From: a virus
Taxonomy: Duplodnaviria; Heunggongvirae; Uroviricota; Caudoviricetes
IMG/VR virus record: IMGVR_UViG_2706794697_000013
Strand: one strand, 5' to 3'
DNA length: 48,556 bases
Part shown: positions 3,822-47,004 of the stretch, in pieces
Layout of the letters: every line of letters begins with the position of its first letter
Position numbering within the stretch: position 1 is the stretch's first letter
The notes under the pieces: model-generated
Databases searched by the model: none
What the model was told of the DNA's origin: nothing
The model's input: only the letters and a program-made list of their open reading frames with translations
Made by a program: the position numbers and the translations under genes

Positions 3822-4473
3822 TCAGAATTTATAACCGACACCCACGATGAAACCGTCAGTGCGCCAGTCGCCACTGCCGGAGCCTTCATAAGCAATATCA
3901 ATGGCCACGGATTCGGTCGGGTTAAACTGCACGCCAGCTCCCCACGCCAGAGACGTGTTGCTGTGGCGACCGTCATCACTTCCGGTCAGCACGTCGTGCG
4001 TTTTCCCCTTGTTGTCAGTTACGCGGAGATAATCCCCGGAGAAAGTCGACACACGGCTGTAAGCCACACCCGCCATCGCATACGCGCTGAACCATTCATT
4101 CACGCGCACAGACGGCCCCGCCATTACGCTGAACCAGCGGTTACGAACGGAATCTTCATGCCAGCGGGTATCGCTGTAACGGGTCAGCTGGCGATTCTTG
4201 TCTCCTGCATAGCTGAATGACGTCACCAGCCCCAGNNNNNNNNNNNNNNNNNNNNNNNNNNNNNNNNNNNNNNNNNNNNNNNNNNNNNNNNTCCGTAAAC
4301 TCATAACGGTATTTCACGTTAATCCCGTTCAGATCATCACTGCCGGGAACGTTGGTCCGGGCATGAAGATACCCCGCGCTCAGCGTGGACTGATGTTCAG
4401 ACGCCCATGCAGGCGCACCGGATACGGCCAGACAAATGGCTGCGGACAAAATTGCTGCACAAACTTTACGCAT
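3822..4473 (-). CDS. lom: Lom-like outer membrane protein (interrupted by an N-run at 4236-4291)
   Basis: N-terminus MRKVCAAILSAAICLAVSGAPAWASEHQSTLSAGYLHA and C-terminal beta-barrel sequence as recalled for lambda Lom; two ORF-track pieces are in frame across the N-run. Confidence 0.75.
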
Positions 4474-8665: not shown

Positions 8666-9291
8666 TTGTCGGTGTACCTCTCTCGTTTACTCAGTTGTTC
8701 AGGAATATGGTGCAGCAGCTCGCCGTCACCACAGTAAATGGCGGCATGATTCGGCACCGATGAACCAAAACAGCACAGCAGCACATCGCCCGGCTGCGCC
8801 GTTGACAACGGCACCTGATACAGCCCTGTAGCCTCCAGATTATCCAGATAGAGATTCTGACCATTACGCCACCAGTCGTCCTCACGATGAAAATCTGGCA
8901 TCTCAATTCCCGCCAGATGGTAAGCGTCCCGGAACAGCGTGTAACAGTCCGTCACCCCGTGCTCAAAGCGCCGCCCGGTGAGATGCGGCACACAGCGGAA
9001 CTNNNNNNNNNNNNNNNNNNNNNNNNNNNNNNNNNNNNNNNNNNNNNNNNNNNNNNNNNNNNNNNNNNNNNNNNNNNNNNNNNNNNNNNNNNNNNNNNNN
9101 NNNNNNNNNNNNNNNNNNNNNNNNNNNNNNNNNNNNNNNNNNNNNNNNNNNNNNNNNNNNNNNNNNNNNNNNNNNNNNNNNNNNNNNNNNNNNNNNNNNN
9201 NNNNNNNNNNNNNNNNNNNNNNNNNNNNNNNNNNNNNNNNNNNNNNNNNNNNNNNNNNNNNNNNNNNNNNNNNNNNNNNNNNNNNNNGCAC
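8563..9291 (-). CDS. Tail assembly protein K-like (NlpC/P60-type); N-terminal part masked by N-run 9003-9287
   Basis: Unmasked C-terminal part (..VPNHAAIYCGDGELLHHIPEQLSKRERYTDKWQRR..) resembles lambda K as recalled; boundaries uncertain because of masking. Confidence 0.55.
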   Translation of the reverse strand: MXXXXXXXXXXXXXXXXXXXXXXXXXXXXXXXXXXXXXXXXXXXXXXXXXXXXXXXXXXXXXXXXXXXXXXXXXXXXXXXXXXXXXXXXXXXXXXXXFRCVPHLTGRRFEHGVTDCYTLFRDAYHLAGIEMPDFHREDDWWRNGQNLYLDNLEATGLYQVPLSTAQPGDVLLCCFGSSVPNHAAIYCGDGELLHHIPEQLSKRERYTDKWQRRTHSLWRHRAWHASAFTGICSDLAAASTFV

Positions 9292-30370: not shown

Positions 30371-30960
30371 TTTTCCTCACATATGTCATATAGTAAAGGA
30401 TTATATATACCGTTGTTTTGGACGCTCAAACAGCGAATCAGATCAAATAAAACGCACATTTGTTAACATTTACACAAAGTCTGCGTGGGATATTCTGAAA
30501 GAATATCCATAATGTGGAGAGAATCTATTGAAGTGCATGGTGCCGGGTGCCTCCCGGTGAACAAAATGTTCGTGATACCTGTCGGCGACAGAAAAGGTTA
30601 ATGGTATCACCCCACCGCACAGGGGGATTCACCATGCAGGAGTTTTCTTAGCAAACTCACTGCGCGCCCGGCAACTCCCAACCACATAAAATGCGGAGTT
30701 TGTGGCATTTATGCATATAACTCGCAGGAATTATCTTAAAAAACTGATGTCGATCCGGATTAAAAAGAAGCAGGTCATCATCAGATGACTGGAAAAAAGG
30801 AAAACAAAAAATACTCATCATACAGTTTTGATTGCAGGGATGAGCCTGCTATGCACAATATGCAGAATATAAGCAAGATAAAAATATGCAGGCATATTAT
30901 TTCGGATCTTGTTATTAACACAACCTTTTTAATAATCATTTGGCATACAATAAACCAGCC

Positions 30961-31414: not shown

Positions 31415-31957
31415 TCAAGCCATTTTCTCAGCAAATGATTCACGCATGGGAATATATAGGGCATACTCAGCAACAGCTAACCAATTAGCAATCCGTTTTT
31501 CGCATGTGCTAAAACACCACTCTGGGTGTGCATCATTTAGCAATTCAGCCATTTTGCGCTTAGTCATCCCCCGCCCTTCATAGCGTTGCCGGAGAATGCA
31601 AATCAATCCTGGATGCTCTGCCAGCACCTCACTTATGACTCGATCAATACATAACGCCTCTGCATCAGTACAATGCGCCAGCCAGCTCTTTTGCTTGCCG
31701 TTGATCATCTCTCGCAAAAACGCTTCCAGCTCAGCTTTCTCTATTCCCGCTTTTTTCATTCTGCGCAGGGCTTCATTAATGGCTGTTTTCGTCAGTTTTT
31801 TGGATGCCAACAACTGATTGAACATATTCCCTGACCTGCCACCGCCAATATACGACCAGCGCCCCCACATACGTAGTTTTCCCTGAATCCAGACACTTTC
31901 CAGCGTGGTGAGGCGAAGGTGTTCTCCGCTTTTTCCTGTATTCGTTGGGTAAATCAT
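31415..31957 (-). CDS. Late gene antiterminator (Q-like)
   Basis: 180 aa ORF directly upstream of the late region, after nin-type genes; family call is by position and general resemblance. Confidence 0.5.
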   Translation of the reverse strand: MIYPTNTGKSGEHLRLTTLESVWIQGKLRMWGRWSYIGGGRSGNMFNQLLASKKLTKTAINEALRRMKKAGIEKAELEAFLREMINGKQKSWLAHCTDAEALCIDRVISEVLAEHPGLICILRQRYEGRGMTKRKMAELLNDAHPEWCFSTCEKRIANWLAVAEYALYIPMRESFAEKMA

Positions 31958-32244
31958 AAATGACCTTTCTTTCTCCAGATTTCTTGTGTGCGAAAAACCC
32001 CTTCAGCATGCATCAGGCGCAATTCTTCTTTGGTGTAATCGCTGGTTTTTACCCGCCCGTCGATTAGATCGTGGCATGAGCTACAGGCTATCGCCGCCTG
32101 CATATCATGTGGTTTTGTCGCTGTTCCGCACGTCCCCGCCAGCCTGTAATGCGCCAGCACAGAGGTTTCGGGATTGTGATTGCAGTAGCCAGGGATTCTG
32201 ATCTGGCACATCTGGCCTTTAGCCGCTTTACGTAAATTCACCAT
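31954..32244 (-). CDS. YbcO-like (DUF1364) Cys-rich putative nuclease
   Basis: 96 aa with ..LRKAAKGQMCQIRIPGYCNHNPETSVLAHYRL..CGT..KP..IACSSCHDLIDGR.. resembling DLP12 YbcO as recalled. Confidence 0.6.
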   Translation of the reverse strand: MVNLRKAAKGQMCQIRIPGYCNHNPETSVLAHYRLAGTCGTATKPHDMQAAIACSSCHDLIDGRVKTSDYTKEELRLMHAEGVFRTQEIWRKKGHL

Positions 32245-32954
32245 TACGCAAACTCCAGTAGTTGTGCGGCCACATTTTCAACTTCCTCCTGAGAGGAGAA
32301 TTTACGGAACAGAATCCAGTTCCACAGCACATTCAGTACAGATTTATAAACCTGCTGAAACTCGACTTCGTCCATATTCGCAAAAGCGATGGATTTTGCC
32401 CGACGCCCACGGCTACCGTCCGGATAAATATGCTCGGTGTAAAATCCGGCCTGAATGGTTACCCACTCGCGGAAAGCCTCAAACGACTTTAGCAACGCCG
32501 TATCCCGGGTTCTACGAGTCGCAACGGTGTTAAGGTATTGCTCTGCGGCATCACTCAGGGCTGGCGTGTGTTCCCGACCAACTGATTCGCACAGGTAATC
32601 AACGAAACCAGACAGCAGTTCTCGTTCGCGAGGCGTGATCGCCCCACCGACCGGAGTCCAGTAATCGAATCCCAGTTGCNNNNNNNNNNNNNNNNNNNNN
32701 NNNNNNNNNNNNNNNNNNNNNNNNNNNNNNNNNNNNNNNNNNNNNNNNNNNNNNNNNNNNNNNNNNNNNNNNNNNNNNNNNNNNNNNNNNNNNNNNNNNN
32801 NNNNNNNNNNNNNNNNNNNNNNNNNNNNNNNNNNNNNNNNNNNNNNNNNNNNNNNNNNNNNNNNNNNNNNNNNNNNNNNNNNNNNNNNNNNNNNNNNNNN
32901 NNNNNNNNNNNNNNNNNNNNNNNNNNGGTGTAAAGCCCCACATAGCATGAACAA
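32244..32954 (-). CDS. Nin-region protein (DUF1367-like), N-terminal part masked by N-run 32680-32926
   Basis: Unmasked C-terminal ~145 aa in frame with the masked stretch; lies between replication genes and ybcO-like gene. Confidence 0.4.
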   Translation of the reverse strand: MFMLCGALHXXXXXXXXXXXXXXXXXXXXXXXXXXXXXXXXXXXXXXXXXXXXXXXXXXXXXXXXXXXXXXXXXXXXXXXXXXXXXXXXXXXQLGFDYWTPVGGAITPRERELLSGFVDYLCESVGREHTPALSDAAEQYLNTVATRRTRDTALLKSFEAFREWVTIQAGFYTEHIYPDGSRGRRAKSIAFANMDEVEFQQVYKSVLNVLWNWILFRKFSSQEEVENVAAQLLEFA

Positions 32955-33128
32955 ACACTACATATCAAATAGCTGGTACAAGGATAGAAATACGACACTT
33001 ATTATTAAAAACGATTAGATAAATTACATTTTAATGTTATGCAAAAGTTCTTTTTTATCATAACATTTCAATAAAAGCATTACAGATGCAATCATCCCGT
33101 CATCATCAATTATTTAAGGTGGTTAAAC

Positions 33129-33215
33129 ATGGAAAATAACAAGTTCGCACATCTCGCTCCTTTTTTATCCGTAATCCTTTTCGCTTGTTGTTTTATATGG
33201 GCATTATTTTTATAA
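33129..33215 (+). CDS. Small hydrophobic peptide (28 aa, candidate membrane peptide)
   Basis: AAGGTGG RBS 6 nt upstream of ATG; MENNKFAHLAPFLSVILFACCFIWALFL then TAA; sits in an AT-rich non-coding stretch. Confidence 0.3.
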   Translation: MENNKFAHLAPFLSVILFACCFIWALFL

Positions 33216-33606
33216 AGTAGCCACATGATAAGTTGCTGGAATCATATTTCCCACTCAAGTCATTAACATTTGATAAGATATATCTAAAAGGACGCCTTTA
33301 CATTATTTATGCGTATATAATTTATTTATATACACAGTAAAGGTATCCTGGGAAAATATTTATCGTTAAAAAATACATCATAAATAATTAAGCTGAAATT
33401 TCAGAACACAACTAATACACACAATAAGGTTCAGTAACAGTAATCTATGTGGACTACATCGAGATTTTTTGATTAAACTTTAATAACTTATTCCTAACAC
33501 ACAGAATGCATAAACTAAAAGTAAAACAAATAGTTATACGAAAAACAACCATATTTATTCTATCTTCTCCTCTAATCAACATATCAATTATGTGTTTCAT
33601 AACAGC

Positions 33607-33646
33607 TTGACATAACCCTCCAAAAGATGCATTTTTAATGCATGTT
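33607..33646 (+). promoter_or_regulatory. Candidate promoter with NsrR-type operator upstream of the yeaR-like gene
   Basis: TTGACA at 33607-33612; AAGATGCATTT-t-TAATGCATGTT at 33624-33646 matches the 11-1-11 NsrR inverted-repeat consensus (AAGATGCATTT n AAATGCATCTT) at 20 of 22 positions. Confidence 0.55.
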
Positions 33647-33661
33647 TTGGAGGAGGTGGTT

Positions 33662-34000
33662 ATGACACACAAGAGAATTCCTAAAGATTGGGTAATCAAA
33701 CGCTCAACTCCGTTCTTCACAAAAGAGAACGTACCTTCAGCGTTATTAACACATCATAATACAGCAGCAGGTGTTTTTGGGCAGTTGTGCGTAATGGAAG
33801 GCACTGTAACATATTATGGTTTTACTGATGAGAATGCTACTGAACCGGAGATAAAAGTAGTCATTAATGCTGGCGCTTTTGCAACAAGCCCACCACAATA
33901 CTGGCACCGTGTTGAACTAAGCGATGATGCTCAGTTTAATATTAACTTTTGGGTCGCTCCAGACTTTTCGGGCGAAAAAGTCTATAGCACCAAAAAATAG
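33662..34000 (+). CDS. YeaR-like DUF1971 protein
   Basis: GGAGGAGG RBS before ATG at 33662; ..RSTPFF..GV..L.VM.G.V.Y.G..DE...EP...VI.AG.FA..PP..WH..D..FNI.F.VAP.. follows K-12 YeaR as recalled. Confidence 0.65.
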   Translation: MTHKRIPKDWVIKRSTPFFTKENVPSALLTHHNTAAGVFGQLCVMEGTVTYYGFTDENATEPEIKVVINAGAFATSPPQYWHRVELSDDAQFNINFWVAPDFSGEKVYSTKK

Positions 34001-34029
34001 ATGATCATATTAAAAATGCTTTAACAGTC

Positions 34030-34067
34030 AGACCCGGCAGGGCTATCCCCGACGGGTCTCATTTTTG
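34030..34067 (+). terminator. Rho-independent terminator after the yeaR-like gene
   Basis: AGACCCG..CGGGTCT inverted repeat followed by CATTTTTG, 30 bp after the stop. Confidence 0.55.
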
Positions 34068-34620
34068 TAAATATATTGGTTCTACATTGACAGGAGACTT
34101 CAACCATAAGAAGTAATCTGAATACTTGAGCAATAAATTTACTTAAGATTAATGAGCGCACCTTGCCGGACAAAGATAAACCAAGGTAACACCTTTTTTC
34201 TAGCCAGTATGTAATCAATCAGAAAGCCGCTCCATAAGAACAACAGCAAGACAATAAATTGCCATTACAGCCGCAATAGCCAGCGCACATTTGAGAACCA
34301 GCACGACAACCCCCTGTATTAGACGCACACCAGTCCTGATAAATATGAGGCTGTCTCGTCAGTGATTCAATACAACTATTGGGTATAGTTTCTGTGATTT
34401 TATTCTGTAGAAATGGAACACAACAACCAGTCACCACCAGCACTTCCTTAAATGCTCTAAGTCAGAAACAAGCCAACATTTTAGTCCGCTTTGAGCGATC
34501 TGCAGACATTGCTAGCAGCCTTCTGTGTGAATTCTCAGGGAGCAGGTCGGCATAGCATCACGTTGAGGCTCTTACCCTACTTGTTCACACCAACCCTAAC
34601 TCCACAGACTGATTCATAAA

Positions 34621-35622
34621 TTAGTAATCTGCGTGTTTCGCACTTTTCAGAAATGCTTTCATATTTTCATTAGGTCGCTCAATTTCGAAGTTACTTCCAT
34701 ATAACTCTTGTAATTTTGGCCATAACTTACTTAATAACCCTCTCCTGCGATAAAATGGATGTATCCAAACGGTAGATAGGTACGGAGAATTTGCATTTGA
34801 ATTGTTTATTGTGACCAGCCCAACTAAACATTGTCGATAACCACTATTATCCATTGATTGTATTTCTTCGACGAATGGATACGCGATTACATCAGTCCAA
34901 CCATGATCGGTTGTATCCCATTGCATTCCGTCATGACATTCCTTCGACTGATAGCGGCGTAAAGCTACACACGCGAGCTTTTGCCAATCTGGAGAATTAA
35001 TTGTGATCTCTTCATCGTATGACGCGCCTATTGGAGCGGGTATTGGTCTGATTAATCCAGCATGGCATTCATCATAGAACTTCATGTTTCCCTCAGAAAC
35101 GTTGTGTACGTTGGGTTGCTCCATGTGTGCGCCATTCAAAAATAGCTCTGATAGTAGTGTATCTACACTGTAATCTTTATTGATTATTGTCGGCTTAGAG
35201 TTTTTCTTATTAAGGCCGCGAGTAACGATTTTTTGATCAATGTTAACAACATGGAATAATCCGTCGGGGAGGCTAGCGAACCACGATGGGGCATCGGACC
35301 AGAATAGCATGCCTTTTGTACTTCTTAAGAGTTTAATTAAGTTAATACAAGCTTCTTCACTAGTCTTGCCGTTGATGCGAAGTATGTTAGGACTAAAGTA
35401 ATATTCATCCATATCAGGGAATGCAGCTTCGCAAAACTCCTGTACATAATTTAGCACCTGGATTCTACAGAGATCATCATAGCTGGTAATAACTAAGGGG
35501 GTATCTTCATTACTATTATGATTATCAATAATGCAATCTATAGCGAGACTTACTGCTTTGCGTATCACTTCAGTTGAATCTAACGACTCTAAAAATTTTG
35601 TCTTTCGTGTGCGAATATCCAT
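34621..35622 (-). CDS. Hypothetical protein B (333 aa) with GNAT-like C-terminal motif; second gene of AT-rich cassette
   Basis: ATG at 35622, 15 nt after protein A stop; C-terminal ..LSTVWIHPFYRRRGLLSKLWPKLQELYG.. resembles GNAT motif A; AT-rich. Confidence 0.6.
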   Translation of the reverse strand: MDIRTRKTKFLESLDSTEVIRKAVSLAIDCIIDNHNSNEDTPLVITSYDDLCRIQVLNYVQEFCEAAFPDMDEYYFSPNILRINGKTSEEACINLIKLLRSTKGMLFWSDAPSWFASLPDGLFHVVNIDQKIVTRGLNKKNSKPTIINKDYSVDTLLSELFLNGAHMEQPNVHNVSEGNMKFYDECHAGLIRPIPAPIGASYDEEITINSPDWQKLACVALRRYQSKECHDGMQWDTTDHGWTDVIAYPFVEEIQSMDNSGYRQCLVGLVTINNSNANSPYLSTVWIHPFYRRRGLLSKLWPKLQELYGSNFEIERPNENMKAFLKSAKHADY

Positions 35623-35637
35623 GTATGACCTGCGCTA

Positions 35638-36660
35638 TTAAAATTCATGAATGAACGGTTTGTCATCTGGTTGCAAAATGGTGGTTTTATTCGTTGCTAC
35701 ATTTAAACTGTTGTAGAGCATAATTGCCAGGTTCGATGCATTTTCAATCAGCGTTTCAAGATCCTGGTCTGTAATCACTACGAGGTTCCCTTCTTTATCC
35801 TTTCCACCACGATGCACTAAGTGATTTCGATTGAGGGTTGCCAATTCAATAGCTTCTATCGGACAGTCTTTTTGTACTTTTATATCGAATGTAGCTTCAT
35901 AGCGGTCGATTACCTTTTTAGTGCTATGCCAGCTTGCACTGATCAAGTGTTCCTTGATTGACCTGATTAGCTCTCCCCTAATTTTCTCGATGGGTTCACC
36001 CTTGAAAGGCAACGCAGCAATATCTTTGCTTACTTTAAATTCAGTCTTACCTTTTTCTATACAATTGGCTATGTAGACATCATCTTTCTCTATAGAATTA
36101 ATGAATAGCTCAACATAAAGCGTTTCCAAAGCTGTAATAACATTCGTGTAGAGCAAACTAAGCAAGTGGTTTTTTTGCTGTTGTTCAGTTTTATCTTTTG
36201 CAAGTTTTTTTATTTTATCGATATTATCAATGAATTTTAAATACGGATTACCGGAAGACGTTACAGCGTCGTAGATATCATCATCGTACCAATCATCTAT
36301 ATTATTTGAGTTTCCAGACCAGTCAAAACATTGTGTTTGTAATTCATCTACTAATTCCTCAATATACTCAGATTTAACATATTGACCGAAGATGGATTGT
36401 AGTTCTTCGCTCGCATCATACGGCCCGCCATATATGTAAGCATAGCCACCTTCTCTACTTTCATACGGACAAGCATTTGCCGGATCTTCAAAGTTTTCAA
36501 AGAACCAGTTTTTCATTACTTCGAGTTGATCTTTTTTGCTTATGTATTTTAAAGATTTTAGTGGAACTTTCTTTCCATTAACCTCGAAAACAATTTTCAC
36601 GATGTAACGCTCCCTTGTATCAATTGCGCAACTATTATACCACAGCGAAATACAGGGCAT
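35638..36660 (-). CDS. Hypothetical protein A (340 aa) with C-terminal HEPN-type Rx4H motif; first gene of AT-rich cassette
   Basis: GGAGG RBS 6 nt upstream of ATG at 36660 (ORF track extends 23 codons further); C-terminal ..ELATLNRNHLVHRGG.. fits R-x4-H; about 36 percent GC by hand count. Confidence 0.6.
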   Translation of the reverse strand: MPCISLWYNSCAIDTRERYIVKIVFEVNGKKVPLKSLKYISKKDQLEVMKNWFFENFEDPANACPYESREGGYAYIYGGPYDASEELQSIFGQYVKSEYIEELVDELQTQCFDWSGNSNNIDDWYDDDIYDAVTSSGNPYLKFIDNIDKIKKLAKDKTEQQQKNHLLSLLYTNVITALETLYVELFINSIEKDDVYIANCIEKGKTEFKVSKDIAALPFKGEPIEKIRGELIRSIKEHLISASWHSTKKVIDRYEATFDIKVQKDCPIEAIELATLNRNHLVHRGGKDKEGNLVVITDQDLETLIENASNLAIMLYNSLNVATNKTTILQPDDKPFIHEF

Positions 36661-36798
36661 AACCTGCCTCCTTAAACTAACATACCATGAGCCAGCAATG
36701 TCCGCTATTGGCACAAAGCGGACAACCACGCTAGCTCTCCCCTGTGCCAGAAAAATGTCAATTTACATATGAACTAATGCTCTTTGATCTAGTAACGT

Positions 36799-46628: not shown

Positions 46629-46823
46629 ATGAGATATGACAATGTTAAACCATGTCCATTTTGTGGTTGTCCATCAGTAACGGTGAAAGCCATTTCAGGA
46701 TATTACCGAGCGAAGTGTAACGGATGCGAATCCCGAACCGGTTATGGTGGAAGTGAAAAAGAAGCACTCGAACGATGAAATAAACGAACCACTGGAAATA
46801 ATAATGGAGGTGTTCATGTATAA
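46629..46823 (+). CDS. ralR: Restriction alleviation protein RalR (Lar)
   Basis: 64 aa MRYDNVKPCPFCGCPSVTVKAISGYYRAKCNGCESRTGYGGSEKEALERWNKR.. read from DNA. Confidence 0.8.
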
Positions 46824-47004
46824 AATTACCGCCACTATTGAAAAGGAAGGTGGCACTCCTACTAACTGGACAAGATATTCAAAATCTAAACTAACGAAAT
46901 CAGAATGCGAAAAAATGCTCTCAGGTAAAAAAGAAGCAGGCGTTTCCAGAGAGCAGAAAGTAAAACTGATAAATTTTAATTGCGAGAAACTTCAGTCCTC
47001 GTGA
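46816..47004 (+). CDS. ydaC: YdaC
   Basis: 62 aa from MYKITATIEKEGGTPTNWTRYSKSKLTKSECEKM..; ATG overlaps ralR stop. Confidence 0.6.
   Translation: MYKITATIEKEGGTPTNWTRYSKSKLTKSECEKMLSGKKEAGVSREQKVKLINFNCEKLQSS

Follow-up and report, generated by a model that had tools for sequence, protein, structure and literature searches.

The sequence under study (the window) is the full 48,556-nt stretch of IMG/VR virus record IMGVR_UViG_2706794697_000013, a member of the Caudoviricetes. Gene content and gene order, together with database matches, identified this 48.6-kb window as a complete Rac-type lambdoid prophage of Escherichia coli. The subject of this analysis is a cassette of about 1 kb within the prophage that contains two plus-strand genes: one for a 112-amino-acid (aa) protein of the DUF1971 (TehB-N-like) family, preceded by an NsrR-type operator, and one for a hydrophobic peptide of 28 aa. 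In the prophage, ybcN lies on one side of the cassette and the cargo genes on the other (Table 1). An initial annotation of the sequence had described the DUF1971 gene as running opposite to the surrounding phage genes, and the neighbors on both sides (the DUF1367/YbcN gene and a 333-aa gene) were indeed found on the minus strand, while both cassette genes are on the plus strand. The AT-rich island in which that annotation had placed the gene was also evident: GC content was 28.8% at positions 32927-33606, 41.0% in the DUF1971 gene, and 47.2% in the whole window. Several E. coli chromosomes were 100% identical to the window over 1.47 kb around the DUF1971/28-aa segment. In strain LD39-1 the same locus is flanked by trkG and lysis genes on one side and by sieB/kilR/racC/recE on the other.

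Table 1. Features of the cassette and of the neighboring prophage genes, with positions in the window.
Feature	Position	Strand	Basis or remark
-35 hexamer TTGACA	33607-33612	+	Direct reading; invariant in 13/13 cassette variants
Inferred -10 hexamer CATTTT	33630-33635	+	17-nt spacer after the -35; within the left NsrR half-site
NsrR-type operator AAGATGCATTT t TAATGCATGTT, 11-1-11 inverted repeat	33624-33646	.	Consensus and matrix match
Long quasi-palindrome	33608-33667	.	From the -35 to just past the ATG; covers the ribosome-binding site and start codon
Ribosome-binding site (RBS) GGAGGAGGTGG	33649-33659	+	Direct reading; variants GAGGAGG, GATGAGG, GGGAGG, AGGAGG
DUF1971 (TehB-N-like) gene, STM1808 type, 112 aa	33662-34000	+	ATG behind the RBS; program-made open reading frame (ORF) opens at 33638
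Intrinsic terminator, stem AGACCCG...CGGGTCT 34030-34059, CATTTTT tail (TTTTT 34062-34066)	34030-34066	+	Reading and folding
Conserved block CTTATTATTAAAAACGATTAGATAAATTACATTTTAATGTTATGCAA upstream of the 28-aa ORF	32998-33044	+	Near-invariant between lineages otherwise about 73% identical
Shine-Dalgarno AAGGTGG	33116-33122	+	6 nt before the ATG; diverged copies AAGGTGA, AAGGTAG, AAAGTGA
28-aa hydrophobic peptide gene MENNKFAHLAPFLSVILFACCFIWALFL	33129-33215	+	Intact 28 codons in 11/11 distinct nucleotide versions
AT-rich spacer	33216-33606	+	DUF1971-linked lineage only; other alleles with a 57-bp insertion at about 33350
Q-like DUF1133 gene	31415-31957	-	Gene neighborhood
ybcO	31954-32244	-	Gene neighborhood
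DUF1367/ybcN gene	about 32249-32848	-	Partly masked by N; read from identical locus L001
333-aa cargo gene	34621-35622	-	ORF; PHROG of unknown function
363-aa cargo gene	35638-36729	-	ORF; beyond the 333-aa gene, then replication genes

The control signals that had been ascribed to the DUF1971 gene, namely its own TTGACA -35, a strong RBS, and a terminator, were all recovered (Table 1). The terminator had been missed by an automatic scan because its loop region exceeds 8 nt, and no plus-strand ORF lies between the DUF1971 gene and this terminator. Between the -35 and the RBS is the palindrome AAGATGCATTTTTAATGCATGTT, which differs from AAGATGCATTTNAAATGCATCTT at two positions and matches the 11-1-11 NsrR consensus at 20 of 22 positions, the same count as first reported. 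With up to three mismatches allowed, this palindrome was the sole match in 48.6 kb, and none was found in 100 shuffles. A position matrix of 26 distinct 11-1-11 NsrR sites from strain CFT073 (PMC5320621, Table 4; form AAGATGCATTT-N-AAATGCATCTT) gave the operator a score of 27.8 bits. This was above 25 of the 26 published sites; only ytfE was higher (31.3 bits) and the other published sites scored 12-26 bits. The next-best 23-mer in the window reached 13.8 bits, and the maximum over 2000 shuffles of the AT-rich island was 22.7 bits. The 78 nt before the ATG occurred in 13 variants among the recovered cassettes, each of which held an NsrR site (17.7-28.6 bits); AAGATGC, AAGGTGC, AACACGC, and AAGGAGC are among the natural alleles.

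The predicted transcription start, at about 33642, would lie in the right half-site and give a leader of 20 nt. With the -10, whichever hexamer is used, also placed within the operator, this corresponds to the classic layout for repression by occlusion: the operator overlaps the predicted core promoter (-10/+1), where bound repressor would exclude RNA polymerase. Consensus scans of the promoter region for Fur, FNR, and NarL sites returned background matches only (Fur best 11/19; NarL 7-2-7 best 12/16), and the best NarL match was located within the -35/-10 spacer rather than upstream of the -35.

The DUF1971 protein matched Pfam PF09313 (E = 2.3e-26) across domain positions 1-80 of 80, and the domain makes up the whole protein. 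Among proteins of known structure, 3DL3 (a Vibrio "tellurite resistance protein B" of 119 aa) aligned over residues 1-111 (E = 3.5e-59), followed by 3BB6 (YeaR; E = 1.6e-24) and 3M70 (the N-terminal domain of Haemophilus TehB; E = 5e-11). A database search returned hundreds of relatives of 111-114 aa with 73-82% identity from Salmonella, Klebsiella, Citrobacter, Kluyvera, Vibrio, Aliivibrio, and Photobacterium. The phage protein was 79-82% identical to the product of a dsbB-linked gene in Salmonella, Citrobacter, and Klebsiella, to Kluyvera and Leclercia proteins, and to Vibrio proteins including 3DL3, as against 41% identity to K-12 YeaR over 111 aa (E = 8e-32). Thus, of the YeaR-like DUF1971 protein originally proposed, the family assignment stands and the closeness to YeaR does not; by sequence comparison, the gene belongs to the STM1808-type branch of DUF1971 and is not a yeaR copy.

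A prophage yeaR copy, i.e., a YeaR paralog under NsrR repression and nitrate activation by NarL/NarP, is accordingly a highly improbable description of the cassette. The two share the Pfam domain and the DUF1971 fold (3BB6), the YeaR matches given above are significant, and yeaR too has an NsrR site (AAATGGTATTTAAAATGCAAATT), which overlaps its promoter as the cassette operator is predicted to do. However, the cassette is far closer to the STM1808-type branch, and the DNA before its gene has no homology to the promoter of yeaR. The chromosomal yeaR-yoaG pair includes the DUF1869 partner yoaG and is activated by NarL/NarP (Lin et al., 2007, as cited in PMC5320621), whereas the cassette has no yoaG-like gene after DUF1971, where the terminator comes first, and no NarL heptamer pair upstream.

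The STM1808 gene of Salmonella Typhimurium was reportedly recognized as a new NsrR-regulated gene, required both for virulence and for growth when cells are under nitrosative stress. Its product is said to be a zinc protein depending on H32 and H82, both of which are reportedly needed for nitric oxide (NO) resistance. The dsbB-linked Salmonella gene is presumably STM1808, judging from the LT2 gene order (STM1807 being dsbB). The 113-aa Salmonella protein and the 112-aa phage protein were 79% identical, and His32 and His82 were invariant in an alignment of 17 sequences. At the Salmonella locus (L036), too, a strong 11-1-11 site for NsrR lies a short way before the ATG. In PMC7527575, STM1808 is named as an NsrR-regulon and virulence gene, with a citation of Karlinsey 2012 (Mol Microbiol 85:1179). 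Since the STM1808-type branch is itself NsrR-regulated in Salmonella, the idea of an accessory gene behind an NsrR-type operator in a prophage is reached by a better route than the original analogy with yeaR.

The two genes differ in their setting. In Salmonella, Citrobacter, Klebsiella, Raoultella, Yokenella, and Phytobacter loci the gene directly follows dsbB and mostly precedes ycgN. The phage gene is prophage cargo outside the dsbB-ycgN position, which makes it a xenolog of STM1808 and not its positional ortholog. This synteny is lacking in the Kluyvera group as well. At the dsbB locus of E. coli K-12, umuDC-hlyE takes the place of the DUF1971 gene. The closest chromosomal relatives adjoin housekeeping genes (murQ/murP-like, phoPQ-purB) and not phage genes, and a metagenomic relative (P0009) had an ordinary chromosomal context. 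Synonymous sites were saturated against every chromosomal relative (synonymous differences per site, pS, about 0.8-1.0), which indicates that the capture was old and not recent. Between the phage alleles of the gene, the ratio of nonsynonymous to synonymous differences (pN/pS) was 0.03-0.21, showing purifying selection.

For 80 loci with relatives of the gene, one genome per species, the 300 nt upstream were scanned with the NsrR matrix; a Shigella copy of the same cassette was excluded, leaving 79 loci. Sites of at least 20 bits were found in 51 of the 79 upstream windows and sites of at least 24 bits in 49. Among 1792 control windows of 300 nt from the same loci, four reached 20 bits and none reached 24 bits. 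All loci with sites of at least 20 bits were from Enterobacteriaceae except for one Photobacterium locus (L059), and most Vibrionaceae loci had no site. Nearly all of these sites end 15-27 nt before the ATG; the distance is 25-27 nt in the dsbB-linked orthologs and 15 nt in the cassette. The closest group was comprised of Kluyvera, Leclercia, Enterobacter, Pseudescherichia, Silvania, and Buttiauxella genes (79-82% identity), and 21 of its 22 loci contained TTTAC(A/G)-17 nt-TATTTT, with the TATTTT -10 belonging to the left half-site. The TTGACA-17 nt-CATTTT of the window is in the same register. Altogether, the operator score and the roughly 50 chromosomal orthologs with the same arrangement support the prediction, made in the initial annotation, of an accessory gene behind an NsrR-type operator inside a prophage.

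The Kluyvera, Leclercia, Enterobacter, and Pseudescherichia genes are the nearest relatives (80-82%) and share the promoter-operator layout and a GGAGG RBS with the cassette; they differ in their housekeeping neighbors, in a pS of about 0.9, and in a second motif. At loci L007-L028 (these genera and others), a Fur-box-like palindrome, GATAATGAGATTTATTATC, matched the consensus at 14-17 of 19 positions. The palindrome has a fixed place, 64-66 nt ahead of the DUF1971 start codon and shortly before the -35. It was present neither in the phage cassette nor in the dsbB-linked orthologs, and it suggests dual control of the DUF1971 gene by iron and NO in those genera. As the cassette has neither the Fur box of its closest relatives nor the NarL site of yeaR, its control is predicted to be by NO only.

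Extended palindromes recur around the NsrR operator of the DUF1971 gene in different lineages. In Citrobacter and Yokenella loci (L029-L035, L046, L063) the NsrR site sits within a perfect palindrome of 39 bp, GCATCTATAAGATGTAT-attaa-ATACATCTTATAGATGC, longer than the 23-bp consensus. As RNA, these palindromes fold with -25 to -30 kcal/mol (z -5.6 to -7.7).

Several observations weigh against a simple picture of a conserved NsrR operator in front of an active promoter. Among 16 distinct full-length cassettes aligned, positions 33618-33657 were the most polymorphic 40 nt of the 1-kb unit (nucleotide diversity 0.115 versus at most 0.06 elsewhere, the divergent 3' end excepted), and such high polymorphism of the operator/RBS segment would not be expected if the operator were strictly conserved. 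The score falls to 20.7 bits in one common allele (AACACGC...). The CATTTT hexamer is a weak -10 and the consensus scanner called no plus-strand promoter. The surroundings, at 28.8% GC, could be open to silencing by H-NS, and the strains with NsrR chromatin immunoprecipitation data, K-12 and CFT073, do not carry the cassette. Finally, the self-complementary sequence reaches far past the 23-bp site and over the RBS and ATG, so that an additional or different role is possible.

Within this long quasi-palindrome, CATAACC (33611-33617) pairs with GGTTATG (33658-33664, ATG included) and CTCCAAAA(G)ATGCATT pairs with AATGCAT(G)TTTTGGAG, which buries the RBS. As RNA the quasi-palindrome folds with -26.5 kcal/mol (z = -4.9), and all 13 variants fold (z -1.4 to -6.1). 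Paired changes were seen across the arms, from CCTCC/GGAGG to CCTCA.../...TGAGG and to CCATCA.../...TGATG. Paired cells amounted to 85.9% compared to 83.2% in shuffles (0 of 500 reached the observed value), with double changes at three pairs; these figures are suggestive only.

The palindrome might accordingly act mainly as an RNA or DNA structural element, instead of or beside an NsrR operator. In one version, transcripts reading through from the AT-rich DNA upstream would form a 57-nt hairpin that hides the RBS and start codon, and only transcripts started inside the operator would be translated. In a second version, the quasi-palindrome would be maintained and diversified by template-switch mutation. 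Such a role would account for pairing that extends over 33608-33667, takes in CCTCC/GGAGG and CATAACC/GGTTATG, and folds strongly in every variant; for paired cells in excess of shuffles; for the hot spot of polymorphism; and for double changes that retain pairing (e.g., CCTCAAAAAC/GTTTTTGAGG and CCATC.../...GATG). We nevertheless consider it quite unlikely. The covariation is modest and comes from closely related sequences, and the 23-bp core fits the NsrR matrix far beyond chance. An RNA hairpin as the main function is made less likely by the position of the inferred transcription start within the hairpin: given the conserved promoter geometry, the left arm would be upstream of the start and absent from the regulated mRNA. 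The equally long perfect palindromes of Citrobacter are clear of the RBS, which also speaks against an RNA hairpin and points to a property of the operator at the DNA level. A DNA-level cause, whether extended contacts with the operator or template-switch mutation of the quasi-palindrome, seems no less likely than an RNA switch.

Of 5426 complete E. coli genomes, 466 contained segment 33500-34070, with the promoter and the gene, and the AT-rich DNA before it (32980-33350) was present in these same 466. Strains LD39-1 and NCTC9066 are examples of carriers. A sensitive DNA search detected the DUF1971 gene in 457 of the 5426 genomes (about 8%), always with at least 95% identity; no diverged chromosomal copy was found in this set, indicating that the species holds the prophage allele only. 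Some Shigella also carry the cassette. Three phages that were induced and sequenced carry it with 97% protein identity. Searches of the available literature found no description of a prophage-borne DUF1971 gene or of a prophage NsrR site.

Related prophages have other cargo in the same slot: QueH, KilA-N with a Hok gene, or an S8 peptidase with an AAA protein. Alternative cargo of this kind is typical of a moron hot spot. A second allele of the cassette, 96-97% identical (locus L004, E. coli EBJ003; phage vB_EcoS-673R7), diverges directly after the DUF1971 stop codon, which sets the right-hand boundary of the cassette at about 33995-34000. In this allele a 41-aa Hok/Gef-family gene (L004 5587-5712) is convergent to DUF1971 and is followed by a KilA-N gene. 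Overall, the cassette has the features expected of a moron: a predicted promoter and a terminator of its own, independent orientation, atypical GC content (29-41% vs. 47%), and presence or absence among related phages.

Could the cassette be inert baggage, AT-rich DNA that is silenced (e.g., by H-NS) and whose ORFs are unexpressed or decaying in a defective prophage? The low GC content of the surroundings and the lack of a scanner-called plus-strand promoter would fit, as would the state of the host element, a Rac-like prophage that is disrupted by insertion sequences in some strains (IS2 in rrrD; IS1 in one DUF1971 allele). Against this, purifying selection was observed on both genes (pN/pS 0.03-0.21 for DUF1971 and 0.12-0.37 for the peptide), and the ORFs were intact in nearly all carriers (about 460 genomes for DUF1971 and 1176 for the 28-aa ORF). 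The -35, operator, RBS, and terminator have all been kept, and the cassette occurs in phages that were induced and sequenced as particles. Inert baggage is thus very unlikely.

It is very probable that region 32998-34066 is lysogenic-conversion cargo (morons), inserted at the hot spot that separates the replication module from the ybcN-ybcO-Q module, consisting of an NsrR-controlled STM1808-type gene and an independent gene for a 28-aa membrane peptide. Promoter use, NsrR binding, induction by NO, and a phenotype would follow from the arrangement of the sequence elements. In a lysogen, host NsrR carrying a [4Fe-4S] cluster would occupy 33624-33646 and block RNA polymerase at the sigma-70 promoter. 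NO would nitrosylate the cluster and NsrR would leave, allowing transcription of the DUF1971 gene with its 20-nt leader and strong RBS. The terminator at 34030-34066 would halt transcription before the convergent cargo genes. The product, a small cupin-like protein with His32 and His82, would add an STM1808-type function to the NO response of the host, and E. coli lysogens would gain a member of the NO-stress regulon that is missing from the chromosome of the species.

Classical lambdoid morons include sodC of Gifsy-2/Fels-1 and bor and lom of lambda. The cassette resembles these in being a single gene with its own (predicted) promoter and terminator, independent of phage circuits, of differing base composition, and present or absent among similar phages. 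It differs in that the cargo brings an operator for a host redox/NO sensor, and by arriving with that operator it would plug directly into an existing host regulon. Through a Rac-type prophage, about 8% of sequenced E. coli and some Shigella would extend an NsrR regulon that is usually treated as a fixed chromosomal set. The added gene is otherwise missing from E. coli, and its Salmonella counterpart is linked to NO resistance and virulence. The natural operator alleles, at 18-29 bits, could serve as a ready-made series of NsrR affinities. This is a familiar kind of phage cargo joining an established host regulon, and the mechanistic picture is unchanged.

The second cassette gene had been noted as a 28-aa hydrophobic ORF with a good RBS about 500 bp upstream of the DUF1971 gene, and was confirmed with a start-to-start distance of 533 bp. 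The peptide has a polar N-terminus; the hydrophobic residues after it, about 20 in number and reaching the C-terminus, form a single predicted transmembrane stretch. Copies with 73-75% DNA identity occur in other prophages that lack DUF1971, with the same start, stop, and 28 codons (e.g., MENNKSAHYAPFLSVILFVLCCVWALFL). Homology between these lineages extends from the 32998-33044 block to the stop codon of the ORF and ends there; in the lineage without DUF1971 a terminator directly follows the ORF. The conserved block also accompanies the ORF where the left flank differs (L126). From this pattern of conservation, the block probably serves the gene as its promoter or control region; no clean sigma-70 consensus was found in it.

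In IMG/VR, 193 contigs encode a relative of the 28-aa peptide. Eighty of these contigs were retrieved and contained seven peptide variants, all intact; DUF1971 followed at 533-591 bp in 35 contigs and did not follow in 45. The 28-aa module was present in 1176 of the 5426 complete E. coli genomes (22%), often without the DUF1971 gene, and was never annotated. Variable sites in the ORF numbered 6, 7, and 17 at the first, second, and third codon positions, and pN/pS against the window allele was 0.12-0.37. By these measures the 28-aa ORF is a genuine gene, forming a separate and more widespread module than DUF1971. Neither this peptide nor a 37-aa peptide described below had a match in NCBIfam, PHROGs, or Pfam. 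The 28-aa peptide had no exact entry in a collection of 15 billion proteins, and a full-text literature search with the peptide strings found no paper.

The initial annotation had offered two roles for this ORF, a small membrane protein or a type I toxin-like peptide. Purifying selection supports the first, and we read the product as a probable small, single-pass membrane peptide; a toxin role is unsupported. Under the latter, the ORF would encode the toxic component of a type I toxin-antitoxin or abortive-infection module, silenced by an unrecognized antisense RNA. The peptide is short, very hydrophobic, and under selection; its 5' leader is long (about 85-130 nt) with a conserved upstream block; and this prophage region carries hok genes in related phages. 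The sole antisense promoter-like site (33231-33203, minus strand) is directed against the 3' end of the ORF, but it falls outside the module conserved between lineages. The leader and ORF (nine sequences) showed no conserved fold (consensus -2.4 kcal/mol, 10 pairs, one covarying), and no Rfam family was found in the AT-rich spacer or the 28-aa leader region. The peptide also lacks both a match in the protein family libraries and the charged C-terminal tail that is common in such toxins (ShoB, TisB, ZorO, Ldr). A toxin module is for these reasons unlikely.

As a small membrane peptide, the product resembles the small hydrophobic peptides of E. coli (ShoB, TisB, ZorO, and Ibs; YohP and YpdK) in its 28-aa size, its transmembrane stretch, its own RBS, and in having been missed by annotation. 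It differs in having no similarity to a library family and in that neither an antisense RNA nor a structured leader was detected. The gene is a concrete addition to the small-protein catalog.

A broader and more speculative proposal, which we hold to be improbable, is that the segment between the -35 and the ATG functions as a hypervariable, self-complementary control element in addition to being an operator. Alleles generated by template switching would differ in NsrR affinity and RBS strength, giving lysogen-specific set-points for NO; the hairpin would mask the RBS and ATG in transcripts that start outside the operator; and the 28-aa (possibly also 29-aa) peptides would be new membrane effectors (toxin or exclusion).

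Three runs of N occur in the window: 4236-4291 (56 nt), 9003-9287 (285 nt), and 32680-32926 (247 nt). The last hides the beginning of the ybcN-like gene along with the DNA upstream of it; the masked letters were recovered from the identical locus L001. A sigma-70-like promoter (TTTACA-16 nt-TATACT, 10/12) was found at about 32907-32934 on the minus strand, directed toward ybcN-ybcO-Q and divergent from the 28-aa ORF. It lies partly in the N run (read from L001 7981-8008), in DNA that is conserved across all lineages, and it might provide N-independent transcription of the Q operon.

The 333-aa and 363-aa cargo proteins belong to PHROGs of unknown function (phrog_16994, phrog_17908) and gave only sub-threshold Pfam hints (GNAT acetyltransferase; HEPN/RES N-terminal domain 1). 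These genes could form an uncharacterized defense or toxin pair. PADLOC returned no match for the DUF1971 protein or for the neighboring 333-aa, 363-aa, and 142-aa proteins.

Just past the DUF1971 terminator is an unannotated element of about 300 bp (34195-34490, minus strand). Its presence, in 1758 of the 5426 E. coli genomes, is independent of that of the cassette, and Qin-type prophages have it between the cargo genes and hokD. The element contains a very hydrophobic 29-aa ORF, MLVLKCALAIAAVMAIYCLAVVLMERLSD (34215..34304; 37 aa from an upstream GTG, 34215..34328), with the RBS GGGGG/AGGAGG, and two terminator-like hairpins. It could encode a further small membrane peptide or be a tR2-like terminator region.

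For the AT-rich island, a gathering-threshold Rfam scan of the window and a permissive scan of 32927-34700 gave chance microRNA-like matches only. Elsewhere in the window three Rfam families scored above the gathering threshold, all on the minus strand: the RalA antitoxin small RNA (46822-47000, 225 bits), IS009 (256-454, 221 bits), and the STnc100 small RNA (30481-30667, 87 bits), which is located between Q and the lysis genes.

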